Sequence record: MW822008.1
Reading direction: 5' to 3' (one strand)
DNA length: 64,000 nt
From: Escherichia phage BF17
Shown here: piece after piece, positions 4,397-60,319 of the stretch
How positions within the stretch are numbered: position 1 is the stretch's first letter
How the letters are laid out: every line of letters begins with the position of its first letter
Program-made: the position numbers and the translations under genes
Notes under the pieces: generated by a model
Seen by the model: the letters and a program-made list of their open reading frames with translations, nothing else
Databases searched by the model: none
Told to the model about the DNA's origin: nothing

Positions 4397-4660
4397 ATGA
4401 ATATTCAAGATAGATTACAATTACTGTACACACTTGAACAGGCTGCTTATGATCTTGTTCGAAAAATCTCAGATGAACTACCTAAAGGAACTAAAGTTCG
4501 TGTACGTGAGATGAATTATTTTTCTGGAGTAATTGAAGAACAAGTACTAACAGTGAATAAAGTAACATACTATGAATCTGAGTTGTCTATTCAGTGTGAA
4601 TCTGATGATGGATTAATATCATATTATGGAACTGATGTAGATATAGAGGTAATAAAATGA
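4397..4660 (+). CDS. small paralog-family protein
   Basis: ATG at 4397 after GGTGGA. Contains LPKGTKVRVREMNYFSGVIE, a variant of the family core. Confidence 0.6.
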   Translation: MNIQDRLQLLYTLEQAAYDLVRKISDELPKGTKVRVREMNYFSGVIEEQVLTVNKVTYYESELSIQCESDDGLISYYGTDVDIEVIK

Positions 4661-5799
4661 CCCTTTTGCAAATATATGAAGATTTAATGCACTTATGTAA
4701 TACAAACGATGCATTCTTTTATGTGGATCATAAAAGTCCTGCTGGTGGCACGTATCGTGTATTCAGTTATCGTCTAGCATCATACACTGATTTCATGCAA
4801 CCAAATGCGTTGGAAACCCGTGGCTCTATGTGGGAAATTGATGAAGAAGGTGACATGATACGTTGTGCAGCACGTACAATGAAAAAGTTCTTCAATGCTT
4901 ACGAGAATCCTGCTACAATGTTCCCTGCTAACACCACATGCGATGACATTGCGGTAGTGATGCCTAAGTTGGATGGCTCGATCATCAGTACTTATCGTGA
5001 TAATGATGGTGAGATTCGTTGTAAATCACATACTGCATTGTATTCTGACCATGCGATTAACAGCACTCGACTTATTAACGAGAACCAGAATTTGTATCAG
5101 TACATCGACGAAGCGGAACGTTTAGGTTACACAGTTAATATGGAGTATACAAGCCCAGAGTACCGAATTGTATTACCATATCAGGTAGAACAACTGTTTG
5201 TACTGAACGTTCGTCATCGTGTGAGTGGTGAGTTGCTTTGTGGTAAAGCACTACGTGATAAGTTTCCATGTCTTGCACAGTACAGTACTAATATGACTGG
5301 AAAAGATATTCATCACACTTTTCCGGTACGAAATACCTTCCGTGAAAGCGTGGAGGAAGTTCATAAAATGCTTGATATTGAGGGTTTTGTGTGCATCCTA
5401 AATAATGGGACAATGTGTAAAATAAAGACTGACTGGTACAGTTCATTACATCTTACAAAAGATAGTATTATTATTGATTCTCATTTATATGAAGCAGTAT
5501 TAAATGGTTCAAGTGATGATTTAAAACAATTGTTCAGTACTGATGAATATGCTATGCAAAAGATATTAAGAATGGAACAATTGGTATTTTCGTGCTATAA
5601 TGCATTACAAGATGAAGTAGAAAGCTTCGTCAAGGAACACAAGCACTTGGAGCGAAAGGAATTCGCAATGAAGGTTCAGGAGTGTTTAACTAATGAACTG
5701 AATCGTCAGGGCTTGGCCTTTGCAATGTATAACAATAAGAAAGTTGATTACAAAGAGACTCTTATAAAATACATGAAAATTGTACTAAAGGATTTTTAG
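4657..5799 (+). CDS. rnlA: RNA ligase 1 (T4 RnlA-like)
   Basis: N-terminus aligns with my recollection of T4 RnlA (YRVFSYRLASYTDF, ETRGSMWE, KKFFNAYENP). Also has the nucleotidyl-transferase motif I KLDGS and a later KIKTDWY motif. Confidence 0.88.
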   Translation: MTLLQIYEDLMHLCNTNDAFFYVDHKSPAGGTYRVFSYRLASYTDFMQPNALETRGSMWEIDEEGDMIRCAARTMKKFFNAYENPATMFPANTTCDDIAVVMPKLDGSIISTYRDNDGEIRCKSHTALYSDHAINSTRLINENQNLYQYIDEAERLGYTVNMEYTSPEYRIVLPYQVEQLFVLNVRHRVSGELLCGKALRDKFPCLAQYSTNMTGKDIHHTFPVRNTFRESVEEVHKMLDIEGFVCILNNGTMCKIKTDWYSSLHLTKDSIIIDSHLYEAVLNGSSDDLKQLFSTDEYAMQKILRMEQLVFSCYNALQDEVESFVKEHKHLERKEFAMKVQECLTNELNRQGLAFAMYNNKKVDYKETLIKYMKIVLKDF

Positions 5800-6622: not shown

Positions 6623-7555
6623 ATGCCAACTATCACACTAACAGTTGGATTGCCTGGGTGTGGTAAAACTACATGGGCAGTGCAAGAGATTAAAAACGCC
6701 AAATCCAAGACTATCAACATCAACCGTGATGATATTCGTGAATCTATGGCTGGGTCACATGATGCTTACAAATTCAACGATGCTAATGAGCAGTACGTAA
6801 CTAATTTACAGTTCAGTGCAGCAAATTCAGCAGCAGAGAATGGTTGGAACATCATCATATCCGATACAAACCTTAAACAACATTTCCGTAATCTCTGGAA
6901 AGTATGGGCTAAAGATAATGGTTATGATTACAAAGAAAAGAACTTCTATGATGATTTTGTACCTAATGAAGACCGTGGTGCAGATGTTCATGAATTCTTT
7001 AAGATTAAAGAGTTCGTAAAACTTTGTAAGAAATATAACCTCCAGCGTGAGCGTTCAGTACAAGATGATATCATTGACACAATGGCAGATACGTACTATT
7101 ATAGTAAGGCATTACACATTGGTTACTATGGTAATTCACGCGAAGCTGCTATCATCGTTGATATCGATGGAACTCTTGCTCATAAATGGGGTCGTAATCC
7201 TTACGATGAAAGTACTGTTCTTCAGGATACACCTGATGAAGAAGTTATTTTGTCTATTATCGCTGAAGCAGTTTTTCATAAACGCAAGATTATCGTCATG
7301 AGTGGGCGTACTGAAGGGTGTCGTGCTGATACCGAACAGTGGCTTAAGAATTGGGGTGTTCCTTACGATGCATTGTTTATGCGAGATATCGATGATAAAC
7401 GTCCTGATGATGTTGTAAAATTCGACCTGTACATGAAAAATGTGGTTGATCATTACGATGTTAAAAAGGTATATGATGACCGCGATCAAGTTGTATTCAT
7501 GTGGCGTAAGCTACTTGGGTTGAAAGTTTTCCAAGTGGCTGAAGGAAATTTCTAA
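6623..7555 (+). CDS. pseT: polynucleotide 5'-kinase / 3'-phosphatase (T4 PseT-like)
   Basis: N-terminal P-loop GLPGCGKTT, then the HAD phosphatase motif DIDGTLA. Size matches PseT. Terminator follows at 7563. Confidence 0.88.
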   Translation: MPTITLTVGLPGCGKTTWAVQEIKNAKSKTININRDDIRESMAGSHDAYKFNDANEQYVTNLQFSAANSAAENGWNIIISDTNLKQHFRNLWKVWAKDNGYDYKEKNFYDDFVPNEDRGADVHEFFKIKEFVKLCKKYNLQRERSVQDDIIDTMADTYYYSKALHIGYYGNSREAAIIVDIDGTLAHKWGRNPYDESTVLQDTPDEEVILSIIAEAVFHKRKIIVMSGRTEGCRADTEQWLKNWGVPYDALFMRDIDDKRPDDVVKFDLYMKNVVDHYDVKKVYDDRDQVVFMWRKLLGLKVFQVAEGNF

Positions 7556-9570: not shown

Positions 9571-10201
9571 CAGTGCATATGTAATCGGTATTATTATTTC
9601 TGGTATGCTTGCATATAACTATAACCGAAGTGTTCTAGGTTATGTAGTACTTGGTACAGTACTAAGTCCAGTGATTGCCATTGGTCTTCTTGTTATGCTA
9701 GGTGAGAAAAATACAAGCTTCTTTATTACTAAAGAACTTGATAAAATCACTCCAGCACCAGAAACAGTTATTCCAGAAGTTAAAGAAGAAGTTAAAGAAG
9801 AAGTTAAAGAAGAAGTTAAAGAAGTTGAAGTTCAAATGCAAGTTAAAGTGTATAATACACTTGAAGAAACTGATCCTAAAGTTGTAGTGAATGTAGTTCC
9901 AGTCGTTGAAGATGTGAAACCAAAAGCTCCTAAAGTACAGAAAAATACTAAAACTGCAAAGAAAGCTCGTTACACTAAAGGTAAGAACAAAGGTAAATCT
10001 AAGGATGAACCACAACTAGGTGTTCATGACCATACTGCACAAATTGCAACGGCAGCGACCGCAGCAGCAATCGTAACATCACCAATCTACAACAATGATG
10101 ATTACAGTGATTATAGCCGTCACAGCAGTTCTTCCTCTGATTCTTGTTCCTATGATAGCTCTAGTTCTGATTCAAGTTCATCGTCTGGAAGTTGTGATTA
10201 A
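9548..10201 (+). CDS. membrane protein with an EVKE repeat and a Ser/Cys-rich tail
   Basis: Two N-terminal hydrophobic helices. Contains (EVKE)n and a lysine-rich stretch. The C-terminus is SSSSSDSCSYDSSSSDSSSSSGSCD. Confidence 0.65.
   Translation: MLTPIILSSAYVIGIIISGMLAYNYNRSVLGYVVLGTVLSPVIAIGLLVMLGEKNTSFFITKELDKITPAPETVIPEVKEEVKEEVKEEVKEVEVQMQVKVYNTLEETDPKVVVNVVPVVEDVKPKAPKVQKNTKTAKKARYTKGKNKGKSKDEPQLGVHDHTAQIATAATAAAIVTSPIYNNDDYSDYSRHSSSSSDSCSYDSSSSDSSSSSGSCD
9776..9823 (+). repeat. 4 x 12-bp tandem repeat GAAGTTAAAGAA (codes EVKE)
   Basis: Read directly from the sequence. In frame within ORF 9548..10201. Confidence 0.9.
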
Positions 10202-10530
10202 TGTCAATGAAACCACTAATTCAACATAATATTTTTTATAGGTCATTATTCAAAATTCAAGATGATTTTTATCAGACGTTGAGTAATGATCTTATAGGTA
10301 AAACTGTACGATATTCGGAACAATACATCAAACGTATGACAAGTGAGTATATTGACCCTGAATACGAATACGACATTGAACACATTAATCCCAATACTAG
10401 AATGAAAATCATTGAGATATTTAAGAATGGGAGAACTATAGGTGCTGAAATTGAGTACTTGAATTGTGATTGTTACATAGATACCGAGTTAAGTTTGGAT
10501 TATCTTGTTTTAGTGGATGATGAGGAATAA
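10201..10530 (+). CDS. small paralog-family protein
   Basis: Contains motif SNDLIGKTVRYSEQY. Confidence 0.6.
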   Translation: MSMKPLIQHNIFYRSLFKIQDDFYQTLSNDLIGKTVRYSEQYIKRMTSEYIDPEYEYDIEHINPNTRMKIIEIFKNGRTIGAEIEYLNCDCYIDTELSLDYLVLVDDEE

Positions 10531-12258: not shown

Positions 12259-12668
12259 AATTGTATTGCTTAACTAATATGTACTGCCAAGGTGTCCAAG
12301 CTGGTATTCAAGCATTCCATGCTGGTGTTAAACTAATTAAAGAATATGAAGGTACTGCTTTCAGTACTATTATTGATGAATGGTACTATGAACACGAAAC
12401 TATTGTAGTACTAAATGCTGGTGGACATGATAAGTTAAATTCTTATTATAACAACCTTAGCAAACAGGGAAAAGTTCCGTTTGCCAAATTCAATGAAGCT
12501 GGATTGAATGATGCTATTACCTGTGTAGCAGTACTGTGTACGTCTGAAATGATTGAAGACATGGCTGTTATGCGTATGAATCTTCCTGCTGGTGATCAAC
12601 TAATGCAAGTAAAATATGGTGCATTGTTTGACACATTAAAAGCAATCAGCACAATGAGGACAATTTGA
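12249..12668 (+). CDS. peptidyl-tRNA hydrolase 2 (PTH2)-like fold protein
   Basis: Pattern recalls PTH2: QGVQAGIQAFHAG...W...ETIVVLNAGG...DAITCVAVL. This is similarity by eye only. Confidence 0.45.
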   Translation: MEMKLYCLTNMYCQGVQAGIQAFHAGVKLIKEYEGTAFSTIIDEWYYEHETIVVLNAGGHDKLNSYYNNLSKQGKVPFAKFNEAGLNDAITCVAVLCTSEMIEDMAVMRMNLPAGDQLMQVKYGALFDTLKAISTMRTI

Positions 12669-13867
12669 TGGATTTTCCAGAGAAGTTATTTGTTGCACGT
12701 TCCTATGTAAACCACAACCAAGTTGATGGTTTTATTATCGATGCAACAAAATCACATACAAAAGCGTTTGAAACAAAGAAAGAGAGAGCAGAGTACTGGG
12801 CAAAGAAGAACAATCTTCCATCGTTATATATTGACAACGTTCCAACTACGGGATTTTGTGTAGTTGATAAATTAACAACTCATGCACGAGAAACATATTT
12901 CACGATCCGTCACCCAGAAGGATTTGAATTTATGATTAGTGCAAAAAACATGAATGATTTAATTATCAATAACGATATAATCAAAGGTGTTTTTGTAGAC
13001 CCAATGTTTTTCAACAATAACTTAGAATTAATTAATGGTAAAACAAAAACGTTTGCTAAGTTAGTTGAAAAAGAAAATAAAAAAGAACAACAAAAAGAAA
13101 CTGTAGCAGGTCTTAAAGTTGGTGATGGTTTCACTTATCTTAAAGAAGATTACTATTACTGCGGTAAAGTACATGCAATTTGTATAAAGAAAACTAAAGA
13201 ATTTGCATATCCCGACAAAAGTTCAGTTTATCATTTACTTTTTAACAGTACTCGTGGAACTTATGCATTGAATCAACGTTTGGATAATTACAATCTTGAA
13301 CCTCGTGCACTCTTGAATAAGAAGACTACGGCAGATGAAGAAATTAAACTTGCTAATGAATTTTGGCAAAGCTATAGAACAAACAGACATAACCCATTAG
13401 GTGAATCTAACATTCCAGTACTGGTACACAATAAATCATTTAAAGCAAAAGACCTTAAAATTAAATACGAAGAAATAAATGTTGATGATCTTATGAATAA
13501 TGGACGTTTCAACGAGAACGTACCATTTATGACTAAAGATAATGAACAAACATATCGCGTATTTTTTGGTGTAAGTAATAATACAACGCGTAGTTATTAT
13601 GGGCGTAGTGGAGATTATAATATCCATTATAATGATAAATTTGAACGCTTTAGTGCATATCCAGTTCAAATTGATGATAATGGGATTATGGTAATGGATG
13701 TTGATATTAATGAACACTCATCATTTAGTACATGGAATGGCTATCGTTCCCCATTCTTCCCACCAAATGAACGCAAAACATCAAGCACTCGTTACTACCA
13801 AGACAAACCATGTCACGTTCAACTATCAATTAGTAATCCACTTTATATTGGAAAGTATTATCTATAA
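12668..13867 (+). CDS. hypothetical protein (about 400 aa)
   Basis: TGATG overlap with the upstream ORF. No domain recognised. Confidence 0.65.
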   Translation: MDFPEKLFVARSYVNHNQVDGFIIDATKSHTKAFETKKERAEYWAKKNNLPSLYIDNVPTTGFCVVDKLTTHARETYFTIRHPEGFEFMISAKNMNDLIINNDIIKGVFVDPMFFNNNLELINGKTKTFAKLVEKENKKEQQKETVAGLKVGDGFTYLKEDYYYCGKVHAICIKKTKEFAYPDKSSVYHLLFNSTRGTYALNQRLDNYNLEPRALLNKKTTADEEIKLANEFWQSYRTNRHNPLGESNIPVLVHNKSFKAKDLKIKYEEINVDDLMNNGRFNENVPFMTKDNEQTYRVFFGVSNNTTRSYYGRSGDYNIHYNDKFERFSAYPVQIDDNGIMVMDVDINEHSSFSTWNGYRSPFFPPNERKTSSTRYYQDKPCHVQLSISNPLYIGKYYL

Positions 13868-13878
13868 AGGAATATACA

Positions 13879-15297
13879 ATGAGCATTTTAGCAATTCTTG
13901 AAAGCATTAAAAATACTAGCAGTACTCTGGGCAAAAAGGCTATTCTTGAACAAAATAAAGATAATGTAACTTTACAAAAAGTACTGAAATATACTCTAGA
14001 CCCTTCTATCGTTAGTGGCTATAAGAAGCTCCCTGCCGCTGATGACGTATATCAACATATGACGTTAGATGAAGCAATTGATAAGCTAGAATGCATTTAC
14101 AAGCGTGATGTGACAGGAAATGCGGGGCGTGATTTCATTGCTTCAGTACTGGGTTCTGTATCTGAAGATGATCAGGAAGTTCTACGTAGAATGCTCACTA
14201 AGAACCTTGATTGTGGTATTCAGGAGAAGAACTGCAATGATGTGTTTGGTAAAGGATTCATCAAAGACGAACCATATATGCGTTGTTCTTTGATTGACAA
14301 AAAGACTGCAAAGAACATCAACTTCAAAGATTATGGTTACGCTATATCAGAAGTGAAAATGGATGGTCAGTACTTAAACCACGTTGTCATTAATGGTTCA
14401 TTAACTTCTACATCCCGTAATGGTAAACTATACGACTTCCTGGGTTGTCGTGATGGTGAGATGGCAGGTCTTGCTCACATCATCCAAAGTAAAGATGAAC
14501 GTTTTAGTAGTGGTGTAGTCTTTATGGGGGAAGGTGTAGTACTGGACAATGATGGAGAAACCATTCTCCCACGCACTACTGGCAACGGTATAATTCAGAA
14601 AGCTGGTAAAGATAGCATCAGTCAGAATGAAGCAATGCGTACTGTATTCGTTCTATGGGATGTTGTTCCATATGATGCATTTTGTGAAGGTGTATGGGAT
14701 GTAAAACGTAAAGAACGTCGCGAGATCTTAGTAGATGCAATTAACGAACTCAATAGTGATTTTGTTCGTATGGTTGGATTCCGTAAAGTTCTAAACATCA
14801 AAGAAGCATTTGAGTACAATAGTGAACTAATGAACGAAGGTGAAGAGGGTTCAGTACTGAAATGTGAAGATGGTATCTGGAAATCTCATACTTCACCTAA
14901 GCAGTTGAAAATGAAATTGAAAATGCAACTGGACTTACGTATTGTTGGTTTCAATGAAGGTGAAGGTAAACGTAAAGGAAGCCTAGGTTCTTTACAACTG
15001 GAAAGTGCTTGTGGTTCATTGAAAGTTAATGTGGGTACTGGTATCAAAGAGAAAGATGCTGAATGGACATTTAAAACCATTTGGGAAAGAATGCAAGAAC
15101 TTATTGGTAAAGTGGTTACAGTTGAGTGTAATGACATTGTATTCGACAAGCGTACTGGTGAGCCATCACTGTTCTTACCAGTGTTTATTGAATTTAGATT
15201 TGACAAAAACACTTGTGATGATTATACTCGTATCTTAGAAATTCGTGAGAGTGCTGTTGAAGTGTTCTCAAACAGTATTATTGACGCATTAGGTTAA
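13879..15297 (+). CDS. ATP-dependent DNA ligase
   Basis: Adenylation motif I SEVKMDGQY. Later motifs EGSVLK and KLKM, and the size, fit the T4 gp30 class. Confidence 0.85.
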   Translation: MSILAILESIKNTSSTLGKKAILEQNKDNVTLQKVLKYTLDPSIVSGYKKLPAADDVYQHMTLDEAIDKLECIYKRDVTGNAGRDFIASVLGSVSEDDQEVLRRMLTKNLDCGIQEKNCNDVFGKGFIKDEPYMRCSLIDKKTAKNINFKDYGYAISEVKMDGQYLNHVVINGSLTSTSRNGKLYDFLGCRDGEMAGLAHIIQSKDERFSSGVVFMGEGVVLDNDGETILPRTTGNGIIQKAGKDSISQNEAMRTVFVLWDVVPYDAFCEGVWDVKRKERREILVDAINELNSDFVRMVGFRKVLNIKEAFEYNSELMNEGEEGSVLKCEDGIWKSHTSPKQLKMKLKMQLDLRIVGFNEGEGKRKGSLGSLQLESACGSLKVNVGTGIKEKDAEWTFKTIWERMQELIGKVVTVECNDIVFDKRTGEPSLFLPVFIEFRFDKNTCDDYTRILEIRESAVEVFSNSIIDALG

Positions 15298-15316
15298 CCA
15301 TTTATTGGAGGTGATT

Positions 15317-16108
15317 ATGAAATTTGTTGTAACATCTGATGTACACGGTGGGACTGATTACCTCCATAGTGGTGATTACAGTGATACAGTACTGATTATT
15401 GCTGGGGACTTCGATGAAGTTAAACGCAGTCGTTACCGTACTGGTATAGAATCACTATGTAAGCAGTTTAAGAATGTAGTACTGGTTCCAGGCAATCATG
15501 AATATTATGGTTCCAATATCCACAAAACGCATAAAGTACTGTCCGATATGCAAGATGAGATTCCAAATTTCATCTTTTTGCAAAACAAATTTGTATGGCT
15601 GGACGGAGTACTGCTTGTTGGTAGTACTCTGTGGACAGACTTCGATAAAGGTAATTCTTTGACGAAGTTTGATGCTCGTCTGAAGATGAACGATTACAAA
15701 CATATCCGTCATGGAACAACATCAGAGCCTTGGCGTAAGAAACTGACACCAGATGATACTGAGTTTATGCATCACAAAGATAAACAATTTATCAAAAATT
15801 CTATTGACACAGTTCGCTTTATGCATGATAATGATTTCAAGGTCATCGTGGTTACCCATCACGCACCAAGTTATCAAAGTGTTTCACCAAAATATAAAAA
15901 TGATTCACTGAATGGTTGTTACTGTTCCGATATGGATCAGTACATTGAAGATTTGGGTGCTGATGTTTGGATTCATGGTCATGTTCATAGTAGTTTTGAC
16001 TACCACATTGGTAAGACACGTATCATTTGTAATCCACGAGGCTATGAATCATACAGTGGAGCTTGTGAGAATTTTGATTACAATCCTAAATTTGTATTTG
16101 AAATTTAA
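15317..16108 (+). CDS. calcineurin-like metallophosphoesterase
   Basis: Contains SDVHG, AGDF, GNHEYY, THHAP and GHVH. ATG at 15317 follows GGAGG. Confidence 0.8.
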   Translation: MKFVVTSDVHGGTDYLHSGDYSDTVLIIAGDFDEVKRSRYRTGIESLCKQFKNVVLVPGNHEYYGSNIHKTHKVLSDMQDEIPNFIFLQNKFVWLDGVLLVGSTLWTDFDKGNSLTKFDARLKMNDYKHIRHGTTSEPWRKKLTPDDTEFMHHKDKQFIKNSIDTVRFMHDNDFKVIVVTHHAPSYQSVSPKYKNDSLNGCYCSDMDQYIEDLGADVWIHGHVHSSFDYHIGKTRIICNPRGYESYSGACENFDYNPKFVFEI

Positions 16109-22702: not shown

Positions 22703-22711
22703 GGATTGAAT

Positions 22712-23464
22712 ATGATATCAGAAAAATTTATAAGCAATGAAGGTAAAAAGCGATTACTGATTATATCAGGTGCAGGACTTTCTGTTGAAAGTGGTATGGA
22801 ACCTTTTCGATTTGATGATGGTTTGTGGGATACATTTAAAATTAATGATGTATGTAACATTGCTAGTTTAACTACAAAATATCATGTTGTTCATTCTTTC
22901 TATAATACATTACGTGTAAAATTGGGACAATGCGAACCGAATGCAATGCATTATTTTATAAAATCGTTAGAAGATCAATATGGTGATTGCTTCCTTCATA
23001 TGACTTCTAACATGGACGATCTTTATACTCGTATTGGTGGTCATGAGCTTAAACTTCATGGAAACTTGTGCGAAGTTATTGAAAATTATAGTATCAATTC
23101 CGATGATTATAATGTTATTAACTGCGGATACGAACCATACATACCAAAACATGATGTTTTTGCTAAACCAAATGTAGTAATGATTGGAGAATATCATCGT
23201 TATGTTGATGGTATTCGCTTACCAATTTACGAAGAACGAAATAATGTGTTGAAATCTCTTAATGAAAATGATACAGTTATTGTAATTGGTAGTAGCGATA
23301 CAGTACTGGTATGGTCGAGATTAGCAGCAGCATTACCATGTTATAGTGTTAATGTTAACATTCGTAAAAATGATAATGATTTTTTGTTTAATGAAAAAGT
23401 TATCAAGCCAGCAACCAAAGCAATACCGCATCTAGAGACTATAATTAAGGAACGTATGAAATGA
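22712..23464 (+). CDS. Sir2-family NAD-dependent deacylase / ADP-ribosyltransferase
   Basis: Contains GAGLSVESGMEPFR (compare GAGISxxSGIPxFR), TSNMDDL (compare TQNIDxL) and the catalytic LHGN. Confidence 0.8.
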   Translation: MISEKFISNEGKKRLLIISGAGLSVESGMEPFRFDDGLWDTFKINDVCNIASLTTKYHVVHSFYNTLRVKLGQCEPNAMHYFIKSLEDQYGDCFLHMTSNMDDLYTRIGGHELKLHGNLCEVIENYSINSDDYNVINCGYEPYIPKHDVFAKPNVVMIGEYHRYVDGIRLPIYEERNNVLKSLNENDTVIVIGSSDTVLVWSRLAAALPCYSVNVNIRKNDNDFLFNEKVIKPATKAIPHLETIIKERMK

Positions 23465-24012
23465 GTGTTAAAGAAGTTCCCTTTGGTGAATATGGCACAC
23501 GTGCAAATTTTGTATTTTGTTATTTCTTTGCAAGAAAATGCAACCCTTACAAAAACTATGAGTTGAATGATATACCAGAAGTAAATTTAGTATTACTGCA
23601 ATTACGATGGGATGGTCTTCTTGGTGGATGTGGTGGAACCGTAGAAAGTACTGATATCTCACTAGAAGATGCGTTGCGTCGTGAAGTTCAAGAAGAAATG
23701 GATTACAATATTTTTGTTTCCCATCTTCGACCACTCAAAACTTTTGAAATTTACCCAGGTGCAAACAGTCACAGTTTTAGCTATGAAGTAACCTATGACG
23801 AGTTGAAACACATTAGAGATGGATACACTAATGCTAAACATGCAAGTGCAGAAGTTGCTGGTGTAAATTTATGTCATATTTCTCGTTATTCTAAGGGACA
23901 AAATCGAGAAGCGGGATATAATAATCTTATGACACAGAACTTCATCGGTACAGCAAAACAAGAATTGGAGTATCTGGTTCAAAAAGAAAACTTACTAATT
24001 AGTTATCTATAG
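23461..24012 (+). CDS. Nudix-family hydrolase (slightly atypical box)
   Basis: Contains GGTVESTDISLEDALRREVQEEMDY. The REVQEE core is present, but the upstream spacing is one residue longer than in MutT. Confidence 0.65.
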   Translation: MSVKEVPFGEYGTRANFVFCYFFARKCNPYKNYELNDIPEVNLVLLQLRWDGLLGGCGGTVESTDISLEDALRREVQEEMDYNIFVSHLRPLKTFEIYPGANSHSFSYEVTYDELKHIRDGYTNAKHASAEVAGVNLCHISRYSKGQNREAGYNNLMTQNFIGTAKQELEYLVQKENLLISYL

Positions 24013-28406: not shown

Positions 28407-29378
28407 ATGAAAACTAAAATTATTTCTGAACAAAAAATTGGCAATACTACAGTACTGAATCTTGAAGTTCAAGGTCTTAGTAATGTTCGTTCTCTTACGG
28501 TTTGTACTCAGAGAGATGATTTGACTGATTTCTATAGCTCAGAATACATGTCAGAAGAACCTTGGGATATGGGATGGTTGGACGGTAGTAGTTATATCAG
28601 TTCACGTTATAGTTTTGGTTCTCATGAAAATATTGAACAATTAAAAAATGAGTATATTAAACTCAGTGATACTATTGAAATGAAAGAAGAAGATTGTGTA
28701 GAACTTTTCATTTTTGAATTCGATGCCGGAAATGGTAATTCATTACTAGTAAGTAATATTGAAGAACATTTAATGTATCATGAAATTGAAGATGTAGATT
28801 TTGAAAGTATTAAAAATGTTGTTCATATGGTTGGTGGTAGTATTACTGATGATTCAGATATCGGTCATAATATTTCACTGTGCTTAATTTCTCATCCAAA
28901 AACTCGTGGTTTTAAAGTTCCACAAGATGAAACTTACGTGTCTGAAACTGCTGATGAAGGAATTTATCCTTGGAATGATTATGTAGAATACTATGGTCAT
29001 TTCTGTTCTGATACAAAAGAACTGAAAAAAGGCGAACAATATTTTGATATGTTCCGTGCTGCACAGCGTTTAGTACTGAATAATACTGAACTATTTCCTG
29101 ATCGCGGCGAAGAAAATATGATTGATATTATCTTCAAGAACTATGATTATGTACAGAACATTCCTGATAATGTACATTTGGAATATGTTCACAGTTCTTC
29201 AAACAAATTCTATAATATTGAATTGAATGCTCCAGTGTGTGAAGTAATTATTGAGTACGGTGCTATTGGTAAAACCAGTACTACTGATGGTGAAGAATTC
29301 GAAACTATTGAAGAAGCACGTAAGTTCTTCGAGAAGAAAGTAATTTCCAAAATTAAAAGTGGTTATAGCCCAAAATGA
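28407..29378 (+). CDS. protein with a C-terminal WGR domain
   Basis: C-terminus is SSNKFYNIELN...IEYGAIGKTSTTDGEEFETIEEARKFFEKKVISKIKSGY, a WGR-like pattern with YGAIG in place of WGRIG. Confidence 0.6.
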   Translation: MKTKIISEQKIGNTTVLNLEVQGLSNVRSLTVCTQRDDLTDFYSSEYMSEEPWDMGWLDGSSYISSRYSFGSHENIEQLKNEYIKLSDTIEMKEEDCVELFIFEFDAGNGNSLLVSNIEEHLMYHEIEDVDFESIKNVVHMVGGSITDDSDIGHNISLCLISHPKTRGFKVPQDETYVSETADEGIYPWNDYVEYYGHFCSDTKELKKGEQYFDMFRAAQRLVLNNTELFPDRGEENMIDIIFKNYDYVQNIPDNVHLEYVHSSSNKFYNIELNAPVCEVIIEYGAIGKTSTTDGEEFETIEEARKFFEKKVISKIKSGYSPK

Positions 29379-43593: not shown

Positions 43594-43995
43594 ATGACTA
43601 CAGTTGATGATATCTATAGCACTATACGCAATATGAGTACAGATAGAAAAGTATTTGGCGATAAAGAAAAATCTAAGTGTTATGGTATTGATTCTTTTGA
43701 TATAATTTCTTATGAGTACAATACAAGTGGAAATAGTTCACTGAATATCGTCTGTCCTCGTGACCCAGAAAATAATTTTATGTATGTTGAAATTAATAAT
43801 GATGGAATGTTTTTTACAAAAGTTTTCAAAGGTGGAATTAATTACGAACCTATTGAATGTATGAATGAAGAAACTTTCTTTCAAGAAGATACAATTATCA
43901 ATTTAGGTTTTAGTTTTGATGATTATAAAACATTAGAACATGACTTTAATCGTTATTATAATGGTTTCTTAAAGGAGTTAACAATTTATCTATGA
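43594..43995 (+). CDS. hypothetical protein
   Basis: ORF track. Confidence 0.6.
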   Translation: MTTVDDIYSTIRNMSTDRKVFGDKEKSKCYGIDSFDIISYEYNTSGNSSLNIVCPRDPENNFMYVEINNDGMFFTKVFKGGINYEPIECMNEETFFQEDTIINLGFSFDDYKTLEHDFNRYYNGFLKELTIYL

Positions 43996-45224
43996 ATAAC
44001 CAATATATTGAACAAACAATAGTGAAACACTTGGCTGGGTCACAAGCCTACGGAACCAGTACACCGGAAAGTGATACTGATTATCGTGGTATTTTTCTTG
44101 CTAATAAAGAATTTATTCTTACACCCTTCTATAAGGTCAAAGAGGTAGCTGACAAAAGCGAAGAAGATACTAAATTCTATGAGTTGAATCAGTATTTAAA
44201 ATTATACACTGAAGCTAACCCTAATATTCTTGAATCACTTTGGGTTGAACCTGAACACATTGTGGAAAGTACTGAAATTTATGACTATCTTCGTTCATTT
44301 AACCAAAAACTTCTTAGTTCCAAGATTGCATTTTCATACACTGGATATGCATATAATCAGATTAAGCGTATGACAAATCATCACGGTTGGATGGATAAAG
44401 AGCGTATTGCTGAAAAACGATTAAATGAGATTTTAGAAGAACACCCTGTCGATGAGGTTCTTGCGTGGATGTATGATTCATTCCCACAGTATCTTGTTGA
44501 ACGTTTAGATACATCCAACTTACATCCATTTAATGCTAAAAAGATTGATTTTGAAAAATATATGCGTGATACATCATTGCAGTTAGTTTCGAAAAATCCA
44601 TTAAAGCAATATCATTTCGTAAGATTAGTGCATAACTACACTACTGAAAAAATTCTTGATCGTGATTTCAATTTATTGAATTTTAATAATGGTTATGAAC
44701 TAATTCATTACGGAGAAAACATTTTTGCGATTGTTAAGAATCCTAATGAAAGCACTATTAACCATGATGGTTCATTGCGTTATTTTTCAAAAGAACGTAG
44801 TACTGAAGAGTTGAAAACCAAACCAGAACTAATTGTCAAATTTAACGAAAAAGAATATCAGGAAAATAGTGAGAATAGGAAAAGTTATCATAAATGGAAA
44901 GAAAATCGTAATGCCAAACGTGCTATTTTAGAATCACAACACGGATACGATTGTAAACATGCTATGCACACAATCCGACTTTTGAATAGTGCAGAAGAAG
45001 CGTTACAAAGTGGAATTATTCAAGTTAAACGACCAGATGCACAAATGTTGATGGATATTCGTAATGGTAAATGGAAGTATGAAGAAGTATTAGAATATTT
45101 CGATGATAAAGTACAATACATTCGTGATGTTCTATATAAGAAATCAGTACTTCCTAAAAAACCAAACATCAAGTTAGCATCAAAAATTATCATTGATATT
45201 AGAGAAATGCAATGGTATAAGTAA
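43992..45224 (+). CDS. Pol-beta-superfamily nucleotidyltransferase (RlaP-like)
   Basis: N-terminal LAGSQAYGTSTPESDTDYRGIF is the GS...D.D nucleotidyltransferase motif typical of the PF10127-type family. Confidence 0.65.
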   Translation: MNNQYIEQTIVKHLAGSQAYGTSTPESDTDYRGIFLANKEFILTPFYKVKEVADKSEEDTKFYELNQYLKLYTEANPNILESLWVEPEHIVESTEIYDYLRSFNQKLLSSKIAFSYTGYAYNQIKRMTNHHGWMDKERIAEKRLNEILEEHPVDEVLAWMYDSFPQYLVERLDTSNLHPFNAKKIDFEKYMRDTSLQLVSKNPLKQYHFVRLVHNYTTEKILDRDFNLLNFNNGYELIHYGENIFAIVKNPNESTINHDGSLRYFSKERSTEELKTKPELIVKFNEKEYQENSENRKSYHKWKENRNAKRAILESQHGYDCKHAMHTIRLLNSAEEALQSGIIQVKRPDAQMLMDIRNGKWKYEEVLEYFDDKVQYIRDVLYKKSVLPKKPNIKLASKIIIDIREMQWYK

Positions 45225-50613: not shown

Positions 50614-50970
50614 ATGAAATCTAAAATCTTTTTACCACAATTAATGTGGCATCTAGCAGAGTTAGATGAAAATGATGAATATACTGACTATGGTGCATGG
50701 GATGACAGTACTGAAACTTTTAAACCAGATGTAAAATATAAAATCATCTGCAATGAAAGCAAAGGGCACAGAAGGTGGACTGAAGAATTTGATCTCGTAT
50801 TTCTTGACATGAGCACAAATAAGTTTTATCATTGTACTTATGAACGAGGTTTAACAGAAGATAGACCAGTACAACCATTCAGTACTGAAACTGATGGTGT
50901 TAAGTGCAATGAAGTTTCTGTTACCAGAGAAGAAATTATCACTTATCGAACTTTGTGGAAATATTTGTAA
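50614..50970 (+). CDS. hypothetical protein
   Basis: GGAG upstream. Promoter/terminator element at 50544..50602. Confidence 0.6.
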   Translation: MKSKIFLPQLMWHLAELDENDEYTDYGAWDDSTETFKPDVKYKIICNESKGHRRWTEEFDLVFLDMSTNKFYHCTYERGLTEDRPVQPFSTETDGVKCNEVSVTREEIITYRTLWKYL

Positions 50971-50971
50971 A

Positions 50972-51370
50972 ATGCTTAAAGAATTAGATTTTTCAAACTT
51001 AGAAATTATCAGTGCTGTAAAAAACATTTCCGATATGGGAGATGAGAAAGCAGTTCTTGTTACTATTACTTTTGTAAAAGAAAAAGATAGCTATAGCCAT
51101 TTAACTGGCATTGAAGAACTAATTCATAAAACCAATCTTGAGAATGATGGTAAACTCATCAAGCTTCAGGCTTCCTATACGCAAAAAACGTCAAATTTTA
51201 TAGACCTAAATAATGTAGTCAAGGTGGTATACAATCATCCTGAACACACATATAGGAACACGACAAGAAATGAAAATGTTGCTAACGATTCGAATATTAT
51301 CGAAGATGTTGAATTCATAAACACAATTTTTGATCGTTGTTCTAAGGATTTAAAAAAAGTATACATGTAA
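50972..51370 (+). CDS. hypothetical protein
   Basis: ATG at 50972, immediately after the upstream stop. Confidence 0.55.
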   Translation: MLKELDFSNLEIISAVKNISDMGDEKAVLVTITFVKEKDSYSHLTGIEELIHKTNLENDGKLIKLQASYTQKTSNFIDLNNVVKVVYNHPEHTYRNTTRNENVANDSNIIEDVEFINTIFDRCSKDLKKVYM

Positions 51371-55734: not shown

Positions 55735-56062
55735 AGGACAAACTCAATATAAGTGTATTGAAGAAATCAGAAAGAAAGATGGAACACTTTTTGACAGGAA
55801 ATTAAAACAAGAATATAAAGACCTAAGAGATGTTATCCGAAATGAAAGTTTCGGTGGGAAGCGTAGGCAGAAGATTTATGAATTTCTGAAGAATGGTGTA
55901 GAAATTCAAGTCAATGGTCTTCATTGTGTACAAACCAAAAACGATCCAGATATTTTACGTCTTTTAAAAGAGGGTAAAATAGAAATGTTCAATATCCCAA
56001 TTTCATCCTATGGTAATAGATTAAAATGTAAGCACACGTACTTAAGGATTAAAAATGGGTAA
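55724..56062 (+). CDS. hypothetical basic protein
   Basis: ORF track. Confidence 0.55.
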   Translation: MALRGQTQYKCIEEIRKKDGTLFDRKLKQEYKDLRDVIRNESFGGKRRQKIYEFLKNGVEIQVNGLHCVQTKNDPDILRLLKEGKIEMFNIPISSYGNRLKCKHTYLRIKNG

Positions 56063-56639
56063 ATTAGTATATTACTATGGTAGTATGTCTAGTGGTAAAA
56101 GTACTCATCTTTTACAAAAAGCATATAACCATAAGAAAAATGGAATGAAGGTAATTTACTTAACCAGTGCACTTGATGATCGTTATGGAACAGGAAAGAT
56201 TACTTCAAGAATTGGCATCGAAGCTGTGGCTGAAGTAATTCCAAAAAATGACATTAGTGTTCTTCTTAAAGTTAAAGAAACACTCAAAAATGACGTTGAC
56301 ATTAACAGTATCTATGTTGATGAATGTCAATTTTTAAACAGAGAACAGATTGACCATTTAGCTGATATAGCAGATAATTATGGTGTTGATGTTTCCTGTT
56401 ATGGAATACGAACAGATTTTGAATCCAATCTATTTGAAGGTTCACAAAGACTGTTCGAAATAGCTGATGACATACATGAACTTAAGAACGTGTGTGAGAA
56501 TCAGAAGTGTGGCAAAGAAGCCACGATGAATGCCCGTATAGTTGAAAGTACTGATAAAGTCTTTATTGGTGGTGATGAATCATACAAGAGTCTATGCAGA
56601 ACTTGCTATATGGATTATATGAGGAATAAAAATGGTTGA
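56055..56639 (+). CDS. tdk: thymidine kinase
   Basis: P-loop GSMSSGKST, Walker B YVDECQF, and C-terminal Cys pairs (CENQKC ... CRTC). Confidence 0.88.
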   Translation: MGKLVYYYGSMSSGKSTHLLQKAYNHKKNGMKVIYLTSALDDRYGTGKITSRIGIEAVAEVIPKNDISVLLKVKETLKNDVDINSIYVDECQFLNREQIDHLADIADNYGVDVSCYGIRTDFESNLFEGSQRLFEIADDIHELKNVCENQKCGKEATMNARIVESTDKVFIGGDESYKSLCRTCYMDYMRNKNG

Positions 56640-58466: not shown

Positions 58467-58877
58467 ATGATTGAAATGGAAGGAACTCTGGTGTATGATC
58501 CAGATCGTGGCACTATGAAAAAGAAGAAGGACTTCTGGTTAGTACTACAACTTCCATTGCAGTTGGTTCGATACTACCAGTACTTCATCAGAACTAACTT
58601 ACATATTGATATTAAAGACCCACAATGGGGAGCACATGTCAGTATCGTTCGTGGTGAAGTGCCACCAAATCCAGAGTACTGGAAAAAGTACGATGGAATG
58701 AAAGTTAAGATTAAGTTCGATCCTTTCATCGAAGAAGTAAAAGACAATAAGAAACCTGGGTCATTCTTTATCATAGAGTTTGAAGATGATTTCATTGCAC
58801 AAATTCGTGATGAACTTGGTTTAGCATCTAAATATTTCAAATATCACATCACCATTGGTAGAACATACTACGATTAG
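58467..58877 (+). CDS. 2H-phosphoesterase superfamily protein (LigT/cyclic-nucleotide phosphodiesterase-like)
   Basis: Two H-x-[ST]-x motifs with appropriate spacing: GAHVSIVRG and KYHITIGRT. Confidence 0.6.
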   Translation: MIEMEGTLVYDPDRGTMKKKKDFWLVLQLPLQLVRYYQYFIRTNLHIDIKDPQWGAHVSIVRGEVPPNPEYWKKYDGMKVKIKFDPFIEEVKDNKKPGSFFIIEFEDDFIAQIRDELGLASKYFKYHITIGRTYYD

Positions 58878-58929: not shown

Positions 58930-59044
58930 CTTAAATGTTCCAAAGAACAACTGAGTACTGTAGAAAGTCCAATGAGGCTTTTGCAAATGGCCTCTTTGCC
59001 CTCTTTGTGATTGCTCATTGTTAACAACCAACAAAGGAGGCGTT

Positions 59045-59971
59045 TTGAAAAAAGCGAAAAAAGCACTGAAAACTAAAATTGCCATAGGCGTGTTAGTTTC
59101 ATCAGCCCTATTCGCTGCGATTGGATTTTATGGTTTTTCTCAAAGTGATCGTGCATCATCATTAGACGAAAGTCAGGTGCATAATTTAAAACCACAAGTT
59201 ACGCAAATTCAAAAGCAGGAACTACCACAGGTATCAGTACCAAAAGCAGTTCCAAGCAGCGAGAAACATTATACGGTTCAACCTGGAGATAGTTATTATT
59301 CTATTGCACAGAAATTTAAACCTAAAAATGTACAGATTGAAGATTATGTCATTTTGTTGAAGAACATCAACTTAAATGCAACTCTTCATACTTCTCAGGG
59401 TATCTTTATCCCAACAAAAGAGGATTTGAAGAACGTATTGTTACCAGATGTGACTGTACTGTTTGATTATAAAGATCCAGAAATTGTCAATCACATCAAA
59501 GAAGCTGAAGGTTCTATTGAATTTCAGTCCAAGAACAAACGACGTTTACTTGGTGGGAAAGTTGGAGTTCCTTTCCACAATTCTAAATTTCATCCCTATA
59601 AGGACATGAAAGGTAATTATACAATTGGTTATGGGCATTATTTGGGTAAGAAAGATTCTGATGCAATGAAGTACAGAAACGGGATTACCAAAGCACAGGC
59701 CAACAAACTTTTAATGCAAGATATGAAAAGGACTTACGAGGACTTTACACTATTGATGCAGAAGAAAGATGCAGTTAATCTGACAAAAGAACAGCAGCGT
59801 ATCCTGTTTGAAATGTCATACACAATGGGCGTTGATAAGTTGGCAACATTTAACAAACTATGGAAAAGTGTTAAAATGGATAACCCTAAGAAATTCAAGA
59901 AAGAAATCATGAATTCCTTGTGGTATCGCCAAGTTACAAACAGAGCGGATTTGTTGTTAAGCTCACTCTAA
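59045..59971 (+). CDS. endolysin with N-terminal signal-anchor, LysM and GH24 (T4-lysozyme-like) domains
   Basis: TTG at 59045 is 4 nt after AAGGAGG. TM helix IAIGVLVSSALFAAIGFYGF. LysM HYTVQPGDSYYSIAQKF. Catalytic KEAEG and YKDMKGNYTIGYGH. Confidence 0.8.
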   Translation: MKKAKKALKTKIAIGVLVSSALFAAIGFYGFSQSDRASSLDESQVHNLKPQVTQIQKQELPQVSVPKAVPSSEKHYTVQPGDSYYSIAQKFKPKNVQIEDYVILLKNINLNATLHTSQGIFIPTKEDLKNVLLPDVTVLFDYKDPEIVNHIKEAEGSIEFQSKNKRRLLGGKVGVPFHNSKFHPYKDMKGNYTIGYGHYLGKKDSDAMKYRNGITKAQANKLLMQDMKRTYEDFTLLMQKKDAVNLTKEQQRILFEMSYTMGVDKLATFNKLWKSVKMDNPKKFKKEIMNSLWYRQVTNRADLLLSSL

Positions 59972-59986
59972 AAAGGTAGGTAAATT

Positions 59987-60319
59987 ATGCTAAATCTAGT
60001 TATCCAAGGTAATGTTGATATTACTCCAGCAATCAATGACGCAATTCATGCTGAAGCAAATGCACTAACGAAGTTTAGTGATTCTTCAGTACTGCATATT
60101 GGTGTTCATGTGAAGAAAGAGCATAAGAATCAATATTTCGTAACTTTAACATCAGGCGGTAAGAGTGTTACAGCCGATGATGCAGATTTATACAAAGCAA
60201 TTGGTGATTCATTTGAAAAAATGGAAACTGTCTTAGGTAAAGACAAAAGCATCAAATTGTATCGCCGTAACCACCCCGAACATCCAGTTCAAGAAGACTT
60301 GACTGAAGACGAAGAGTAA
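59987..60319 (+). CDS. hpf: ribosome hibernation promoting factor / RaiA family
   Basis: MLNLVIQGNVDITPAINDAIHAE...LYKAIGDSFEKME aligns with E. coli HPF (MQLNITGNNVEITEALREFV...MYAAIDGLIDKL). Confidence 0.8.
   Translation: MLNLVIQGNVDITPAINDAIHAEANALTKFSDSSVLHIGVHVKKEHKNQYFVTLTSGGKSVTADDADLYKAIGDSFEKMETVLGKDKSIKLYRRNHPEHPVQEDLTEDEE

Follow-up and report, generated by a model that had tools for sequence, protein, structure and literature searches.

We identified in Escherichia phage BF17 (MW822008.1) a stand-alone 2H phosphoesterase of 136 amino acids (aa), encoded at 58467..58877 (+ strand) of the 64,000-nucleotide stretch analysed here (the window). Its assignment to the 2H phosphoesterase superfamily is well supported by the motifs that its homologues conserve and by a predicted structure. 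Judging from sequence profiles, the protein is not, at the family level, an Acb1 (T4 gp57B, Erwinia phage FBB1; PF23474), the nuclease that phages direct against CBASS, the antiphage signalling system that is based on cyclic oligonucleotides. Our preferred interpretation, which we hold at a probability of about 45%, is that the protein would act as a 2',3'-cyclic phosphodiesterase in RNA-end healing.

The open reading frame (ORF) starts with ATG, and a short AGGT lies six bases upstream. The first catalytic motif, A-H57-V-S59-I-V-R62-G63-E64 (58632..58658, +), is invariant in close homologues and contains H57-V-S59 in codons 58635-58643. The second, Y-H127-I-T129-I-G131-R132 (58842..58862, +), contains H127-I-T129 in codons 58845-58853, and the protein ends 9 residues after H127. 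An earlier reading of this DNA, made from the sequence only, had described a 136-aa ORF with AHVSIV and YHITIG about 70 residues apart, which is exactly what we found, the spacing from H57 to H127 being 70 residues. The same sequence-only reading took this pair as the hallmark of the 2H superfamily. The pair alone does not go beyond chance, because, of the 935 ORFs with 60 aa or more in the genome of the related phage PBECO4, 4 unrelated ones also have an H-x-[ST]-hydrophobic pair spaced by 55-110 residues; it becomes significant because it is conserved across the family. PBECO4 gp373 (139 aa, HRSVG...HVSID) was considered as a second 2H protein and rejected as a chance motif pair, since it matched neither Pfam nor the family hidden Markov model (HMM); the family is single-copy in PBECO4. 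An antisense ORF of 88 aa (58574-58840, -) that lies wholly within the 2H gene is unlikely to be a gene; 7 of the related loci have similar antisense ORFs. Promoter-like sites around the 2H gene were fewer than in shuffled controls and the scan for terminators found none adjoining it, results that are uninformative on its expression.

Conservation was counted over 129 family representatives sharing at most 50% identity. The catalytic positions were nearly invariant (H57 129/129, S/T59 129/129, H127 128/129, T/S129 129/129), and the residues following each motif were also well kept (R62 100/129, G63 121/129, G131 111/129, R/K132 98/129). Further conserved positions were G6, Y10, D11, P12, W24, Y36, Y37, P52, W54, W72, Y84, R114, and G118. 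That the catalytic residues are so strictly kept speaks for an active enzyme, and the protein is probably an active, metal-independent 2H phosphoesterase.

The BF17 protein matched PHROG 12204, a group of unknown function, from end to end (E 2.9e-65), and had no match in NCBIfam. Homologues with 24-98% identity were found by tblastn in 76 phage records, all annotated as hypothetical; the listed records were nearly all from jumbo phages, including RaK2-like enterobacterial phages, one Vibrio phage, Agrobacterium phage Atu_ph07, Bacillus phage G, and Ralstonia phage RsoM2USA. When 1.84 billion representatives were searched with a family profile, 904 clusters came up at E ≤ 0.001, and almost all of the listed matches were stand-alone proteins of 130-170 aa, while one homologue was a 2H-YqeY fusion. 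In 185,579 species genomes, nearly the same peptide motif, extended by one residue, occurred at just 3 loci, all on contigs of metagenome-assembled genomes and flanked by genes resembling the neighbours at viral loci, and the family is therefore essentially confined to phages. Its members are mostly basic (median isoelectric point (pI) 9.3); the BF17 protein, with a pI of 6.8, is near neutral and falls at about the 10th percentile. An annotation as 2H phosphoesterase concerns hundreds of phage genomes.

An AlphaFold2 model built from an alignment of close homologues had a mean predicted local distance difference test score (pLDDT) of 85 and a predicted template-modelling (TM) score of 0.77. 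The predicted structure has the bilobed alpha+beta fold of 2H enzymes; loop 10-24 was of low confidence (mean pLDDT of 55 for residues 11-20). The Foldseek comparison with Acb1 and LigT that had been proposed placed both among the top matches, with Acb1 first (7t26, probability 0.97, TM 0.44), followed by Usb1 and LigT. Together with the motif counts, the predicted fold agrees with the superfamily membership claimed earlier. When the PDB chain sequences were searched with the protein and two family profiles, no 2H entry was recovered. Viruses have repeatedly adapted this fold to different messengers (PMC11410667), so that the substrate cannot be read from the fold.

To characterize the genomic neighbourhood of the family, we analysed 68 IMG/VR loci (±10 kb, mostly from contigs >100 kb) carrying a member at 24-88% identity to the BF17 protein. 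The loci were chosen with a motif-selected subset (A3), the full family alignment (A2) being too diverse, and are biased toward members with W[GD][AS]H[IV]S[VI][VI]R. ORFs were called and clustered, and recurrent clusters were identified with Pfam and our own HMMs. Loci were grouped into greedy identity clades, as single-linkage grouping by synteny or at 45% identity chained nearly all of them. PF09414-type RNA ligases, which fell into three subfamilies, were located no more than 7 kb from the 2H gene in 30 of the 68 loci, corresponding to 9 of 25 clades at 60% identity and 5 of 11 at 45%. When Pnkp, RlaP, and the CCA-adding enzyme were counted as well, the numbers rose to 36/68 loci and 12/25 clades, and the addition of YqeY brought them to 38/68 loci. 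The CCA-adding enzyme itself was within 7 kb in 15/68 loci (6/25 clades). Compared to a generous chance expectation of 12%, which was assumed and is not a genome-wide null, ligase linkage in 9 of 25 clades gave P = 0.002. In a locus from an NCBI assembly, SpoU, RlaP, and Rnl1 were all within 7 kb of the family member. The other neighbours of the gene in the window, which are not RNA-related, recurred only within its own clade, and replication genes were seen in 4-10 loci. In the RaK2/GAP32/CBB-type loci (L014-L025), an RNA ligase of 421 aa that includes a PHA02142 OB-fold (PF21189 + PF09414) is encoded upstream of the 2H gene, at a fixed distance of ~3.2-3.7 kb. This ligase was either lost from the 121Q/PBECO4 lineage, to which the window belongs, or never present in it.

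The window shares 99% identity with Escherichia phage vB_Ec-M-J and 88-98% with other Asteriusvirus jumbo coliphages (PBECO4, 121Q), which have genomes of ~350-380 kb. The 2H gene lies inside a long array of genes on the + strand, 3 kb upstream of a gene for a 371-aa CCA-adding tRNA nucleotidyltransferase (61960..63075, +; PolyA_pol + PolyA_pol_RNAbd). No HD domain was detected in this enzyme at E ≤ 1, and its last ~160 residues had no significant Pfam match. It is a possible downstream partner of the 2H protein in tRNA 3'-end repair; the 64-kb window itself carries no tRNA genes.

In the scheme that we infer for the activity, the RNA substrate and the order of steps, metal-independent ribonuclease effectors of the host would leave tRNA halves, or tRNAs truncated at the 3' end, with a cyclic phosphate. 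The two His-x-Ser/Thr motifs of the 2H protein would open the cyclic phosphate to a monoester. Its removal by a phosphatase, in this phage the HAD domain of Pnkp, would give a 3'-OH end usable by an RNA ligase, RlaP, or the CCA-adding enzyme. In a variant of this scheme, the 2H enzyme would replace the cyclic-phosphodiesterase activity of the HD domain, which was not detected in the phage CCA-adding enzyme. Yakunin et al. 2004 are said to have found that the HD domain gives the E. coli CCA-adding enzyme such an activity. The variant fits the conserved 3-kb linkage between the two genes. If RNA-end healing is the true role, the protein would be an accessory enzyme against host effectors that cleave tRNA or other RNA, and it may supply the cyclic-phosphodiesterase step to a CCA-adding enzyme that lacks it.

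In agreement with this interpretation, Iyer et al. 2021 (PMC7824862) had predicted that 2H proteins of jumbo phages resolve 2',3'-cyclic phosphates for RNA repair; because of that prediction, the role would be useful but expected. The same study also predicted NAD-dependent RNA processing together with Macro domains. Its example, QDH83605.1, is not confirmed as a member of this exact family, and the predictions came without biochemistry or neighbourhood statistics for that protein.

The RNA-repair genes mentioned in the sequence-only reading, for RnlA and PseT, are present but distant. T4-type Rnl1 (RnlA; 4657-5799, +; PF09511 + PF20819) and T4-type Pnkp (PseT; 6623-7555, +; AAA_33 kinase + HAD_PNKP, E 8.6e-44) are encoded ~53 kb and ~51 kb upstream, respectively. 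The two genes are adjacent, and this jumbo coliphage thus carries the tRNA-repair pair that is classical for phages. ORF 4657-5799 is the Rnl1-type ligase of the window; ORF 12665-13867 (+, 400 aa) was rejected as a candidate, having no Pfam match, and immediately precedes the genes for an ATP-dependent DNA ligase (13879-15297) and for a calcineurin-like phosphoesterase (15305-16108). A gene for RlaP, a Pol-beta nucleotidyltransferase (43992..45224, +; PF10127, E 6.3e-16), is located 13 kb upstream of the 2H gene. The RlaP family is named for its association with RNA ligases, and the RlaP gene of the window is far from any of them.

Several points weigh against a role in RNA-end healing. The distance of 51-54 kb separates rnlA and pseT from the 2H gene, and the PF09414 ligase is absent from both the window and the whole PBECO4 genome. 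The phosphatase of T4-type Pnkp reportedly heals 2',3'-cyclic ends alone (Das & Shuman 2013), and a separate cyclic phosphodiesterase may therefore be redundant. The BF17 protein is near neutral within a basic family, the top structural match is Acb1, and the activity of every family member is a prediction. The P value for ligase linkage lacks a true genome-wide null, many of the 68 loci are related, and 25 of them have neither RNA-repair nor NAD-related neighbours.

In another explanation, which we regard as possible but rather unlikely, the protein would be a separately evolved, Acb1-like counter-defence nuclease degrading a nucleotide signal of host immunity. The candidate signals would be cyclic di- or trinucleotides, 2'-5'-linked species, cyclic-phosphate-terminated oligoadenylates, and 2',3'-cyclic nucleoside monophosphates. 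The description of the protein as Acb1-like stands for its fold and fails for family membership. The Pfam model of Acb1 (PF23474) was carried by 67 of the 68 T4 Acb1 homologues that we found, and the 136-aa protein did not match it at E ≤ 10, while a true Acb1 scored 72.4 bits with the same library. Alignment of the family (A2) against Acb1 (A4) with hhalign gave a probability of 25.9% over 26 columns that were out of register, pairing the C-terminal half of the 2H protein with the N-terminal half of Acb1, which is attributable to the internal duplication of the fold. The comparison with the single T4 Acb1 sequence gave 1% and was uninformative.

The two families also differ in architecture. 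Members of the 2H family have ~62 residues before the first catalytic His and a median of 10 after the second, compared to 43 and 39 in T4 Acb1. In Acb1, a C-terminal lid (residues 145-152, with W147 and E141) closes over the ligand (PMC9117128). With 9 residues after H127 compared to 39 in T4 Acb1, the BF17 protein has no counterpart of this lid. Instead, the conservation counts delineate an additional strand at the N terminus and a basic loop that is conserved (58482..58538, +; G6, Y10-D11-P12, R14, K18, W24), a family-specific candidate for a substrate-binding or lid element. Acb1 proteins are acidic (median pI 5.7), whereas the 2H family is mostly basic. The base-stacking aromatic residues of Acb1 are Y12, W74, and F107, and the aromatic residues conserved in the 2H family are Y10, W24, W54, W72, and Y84, although the residue-level alignment of the two families is unreliable.

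With the Acb1 HMM, neither the window nor the whole 348-kb genome of PBECO4 yielded a match (best E 0.24). This lack of a canonical Acb1 in Asteriusvirus leaves room for an Acb1-like role of the 2H protein. In two loci of uncultured phages, a true Acb1 (PF23474, 72 bits) and a 2H family member are encoded 4.4 kb apart (in L064, Acb1 at 14796-15203 (-) and the 2H member at 10001-10393 (+); L065 likewise), and Yersinia phage fHe-Yen9-04 has both an Acb1, named by BFVD, and a 2H family member. The two proteins occur in one phage and are therefore not simple substitutes for each other. The protein might also be the founding member of a second, Acb1-independent family of phage 2H nucleases that destroys an immune signal, which would widen the coverage of signals alongside Acb1 and replace Acb1 where it is missing, as in Asteriusvirus; we consider this unlikely. 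If an immune messenger is degraded, the protein would represent a new anti-defence family of ~900 sequence clusters.

Among other known systems, 2H-SAK (PF22547) gave the only Pfam match of the protein, with 23.5 bits (gathering threshold 27) and an E-value of 7.2e-5, covering residues 90-136 only. All 23 close homologues matched this model at E ≤ 0.01 (best E 3.9e-10), many of them in precomputed annotation, and UniRef names the fHe-Yen9-04 homologue 2H-SAK. The domain and the phage protein both end right past the second HxT motif, the match reaching position 122 of 124 in the profile. However, most of the distant family members have no precomputed Pfam match, and 2H-SAK is a domain of Swiss Army Knife proteins, whereas the phage proteins are stand-alone rather than multidomain. 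The function of 2H-SAK is itself, to our knowledge, a computational prediction. The family is thus already labelled 2H-SAK by Pfam and UniProt; it is large, restricted to phages, and uncharacterised. A full-text literature search found no paper on 2H-SAK/PF22547, or on Swiss Army Knife proteins together with RNA repair.

The score below the gathering threshold could be taken to mean that the protein is catalytically inactive, purely binding, or the product of a mis-called ORF. We consider this highly improbable, as the ORF is kept throughout the 76 phage records and the ~900 clusters, the catalytic residues are present in 128-129 of the 129 representatives, and the structure model is confident.

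The LigT_PEase model had no match at E ≤ 10, and hhalign against the single sequence of E. coli ThpR gave 1%, which was uninformative. ThpR has 42 residues before the first His and 51 after the second, and its C-terminal segment of ~50 residues is missing from the 2H family. Unlike the LigT/ThpR proteins (E. coli ThpR, P. horikoshii PH0099, and D. radiodurans cyclic phosphodiesterase (CPDase)), the 2H family has the extra conserved N-terminal strand and loop and carries an Arg after both motifs. A basic pI is common to the family and ThpR (10.5). The protein could in principle be a 2H enzyme that processes RNA in another way, for instance by trimming it as a 3'-5' exoribonuclease like Usb1 and leaving cyclic phosphate ends, or as an RNA 2'-5' phosphodiesterase. 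Usb1 follows Acb1 among the structural matches; the protein shows no sequence similarity to the Usb1/HVSL family, having no other Pfam match, and nothing specific favours exonuclease over cyclic-phosphodiesterase chemistry, so that such an activity seems quite improbable.

Genes related to NAD and ADP-ribose (NADAR, NAMPT, Nudix, Macro, and Sir2) were found in 28/68 loci and 12/25 clades. The window encodes a Sir2-family protein (22706-23464, +) overlapped by a Nudt16-like Nudix gene (23461-24012, +), a possible NAD/ADP-ribose module. Shortly beyond the window end, vB_Ec-M-J carries genes for a Nudix hydrolase, for a glutaredoxin, and for a Macro-domain protein, the last ~5.5 kb downstream of the 2H gene, and the module together with the Macro gene suggests NAD-centred phage functions. 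The 2H protein could be a cyclic phosphodiesterase that opens ADP-ribose 1'',2''-cyclic phosphate (Appr>p) or a related metabolite derived from NAD, in a step upstream of the Macro-domain phosphatase and the Nudix hydrolase encoded nearby. The CPDase pathway of yeast and plants provides a precedent for this step, and KptA/Tpt1, which makes Appr>p, is encoded by the host E. coli. However, single-sequence phmmer searches, the only kind made for it, did not find KptA/Tpt1 in PBECO4, the window, or the 68 loci; the Macro linkage was confined, by the seeds used, to one 45%-identity clade; and no Pfam CPDase match was obtained. The T4-type Rnl1/Pnkp pathway is known to create no 2'-phosphate junctions, which also counts against this explanation, and we regard it as improbable.

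Upstream of the 2H gene are a thymidine kinase gene (56055-56639, +) and small ORFs without Pfam match. Farther away, ORF 28407-29378 (+, 323 aa) has a C-terminal WGR domain, its N-terminal ~250 residues having no assignment, and ORF 50894-51370 (+) strongly matched DUF7325 (E 1e-54), a family of unknown function. Downstream of the 2H gene, a LysM-lysozyme gene (59018-59971, +) is directly followed by a homologue of the ribosome hibernation factor HPF/RaiA (59987-60319, +; PF02482, E 3e-10), which is kept at the same spot in 8 related loci.
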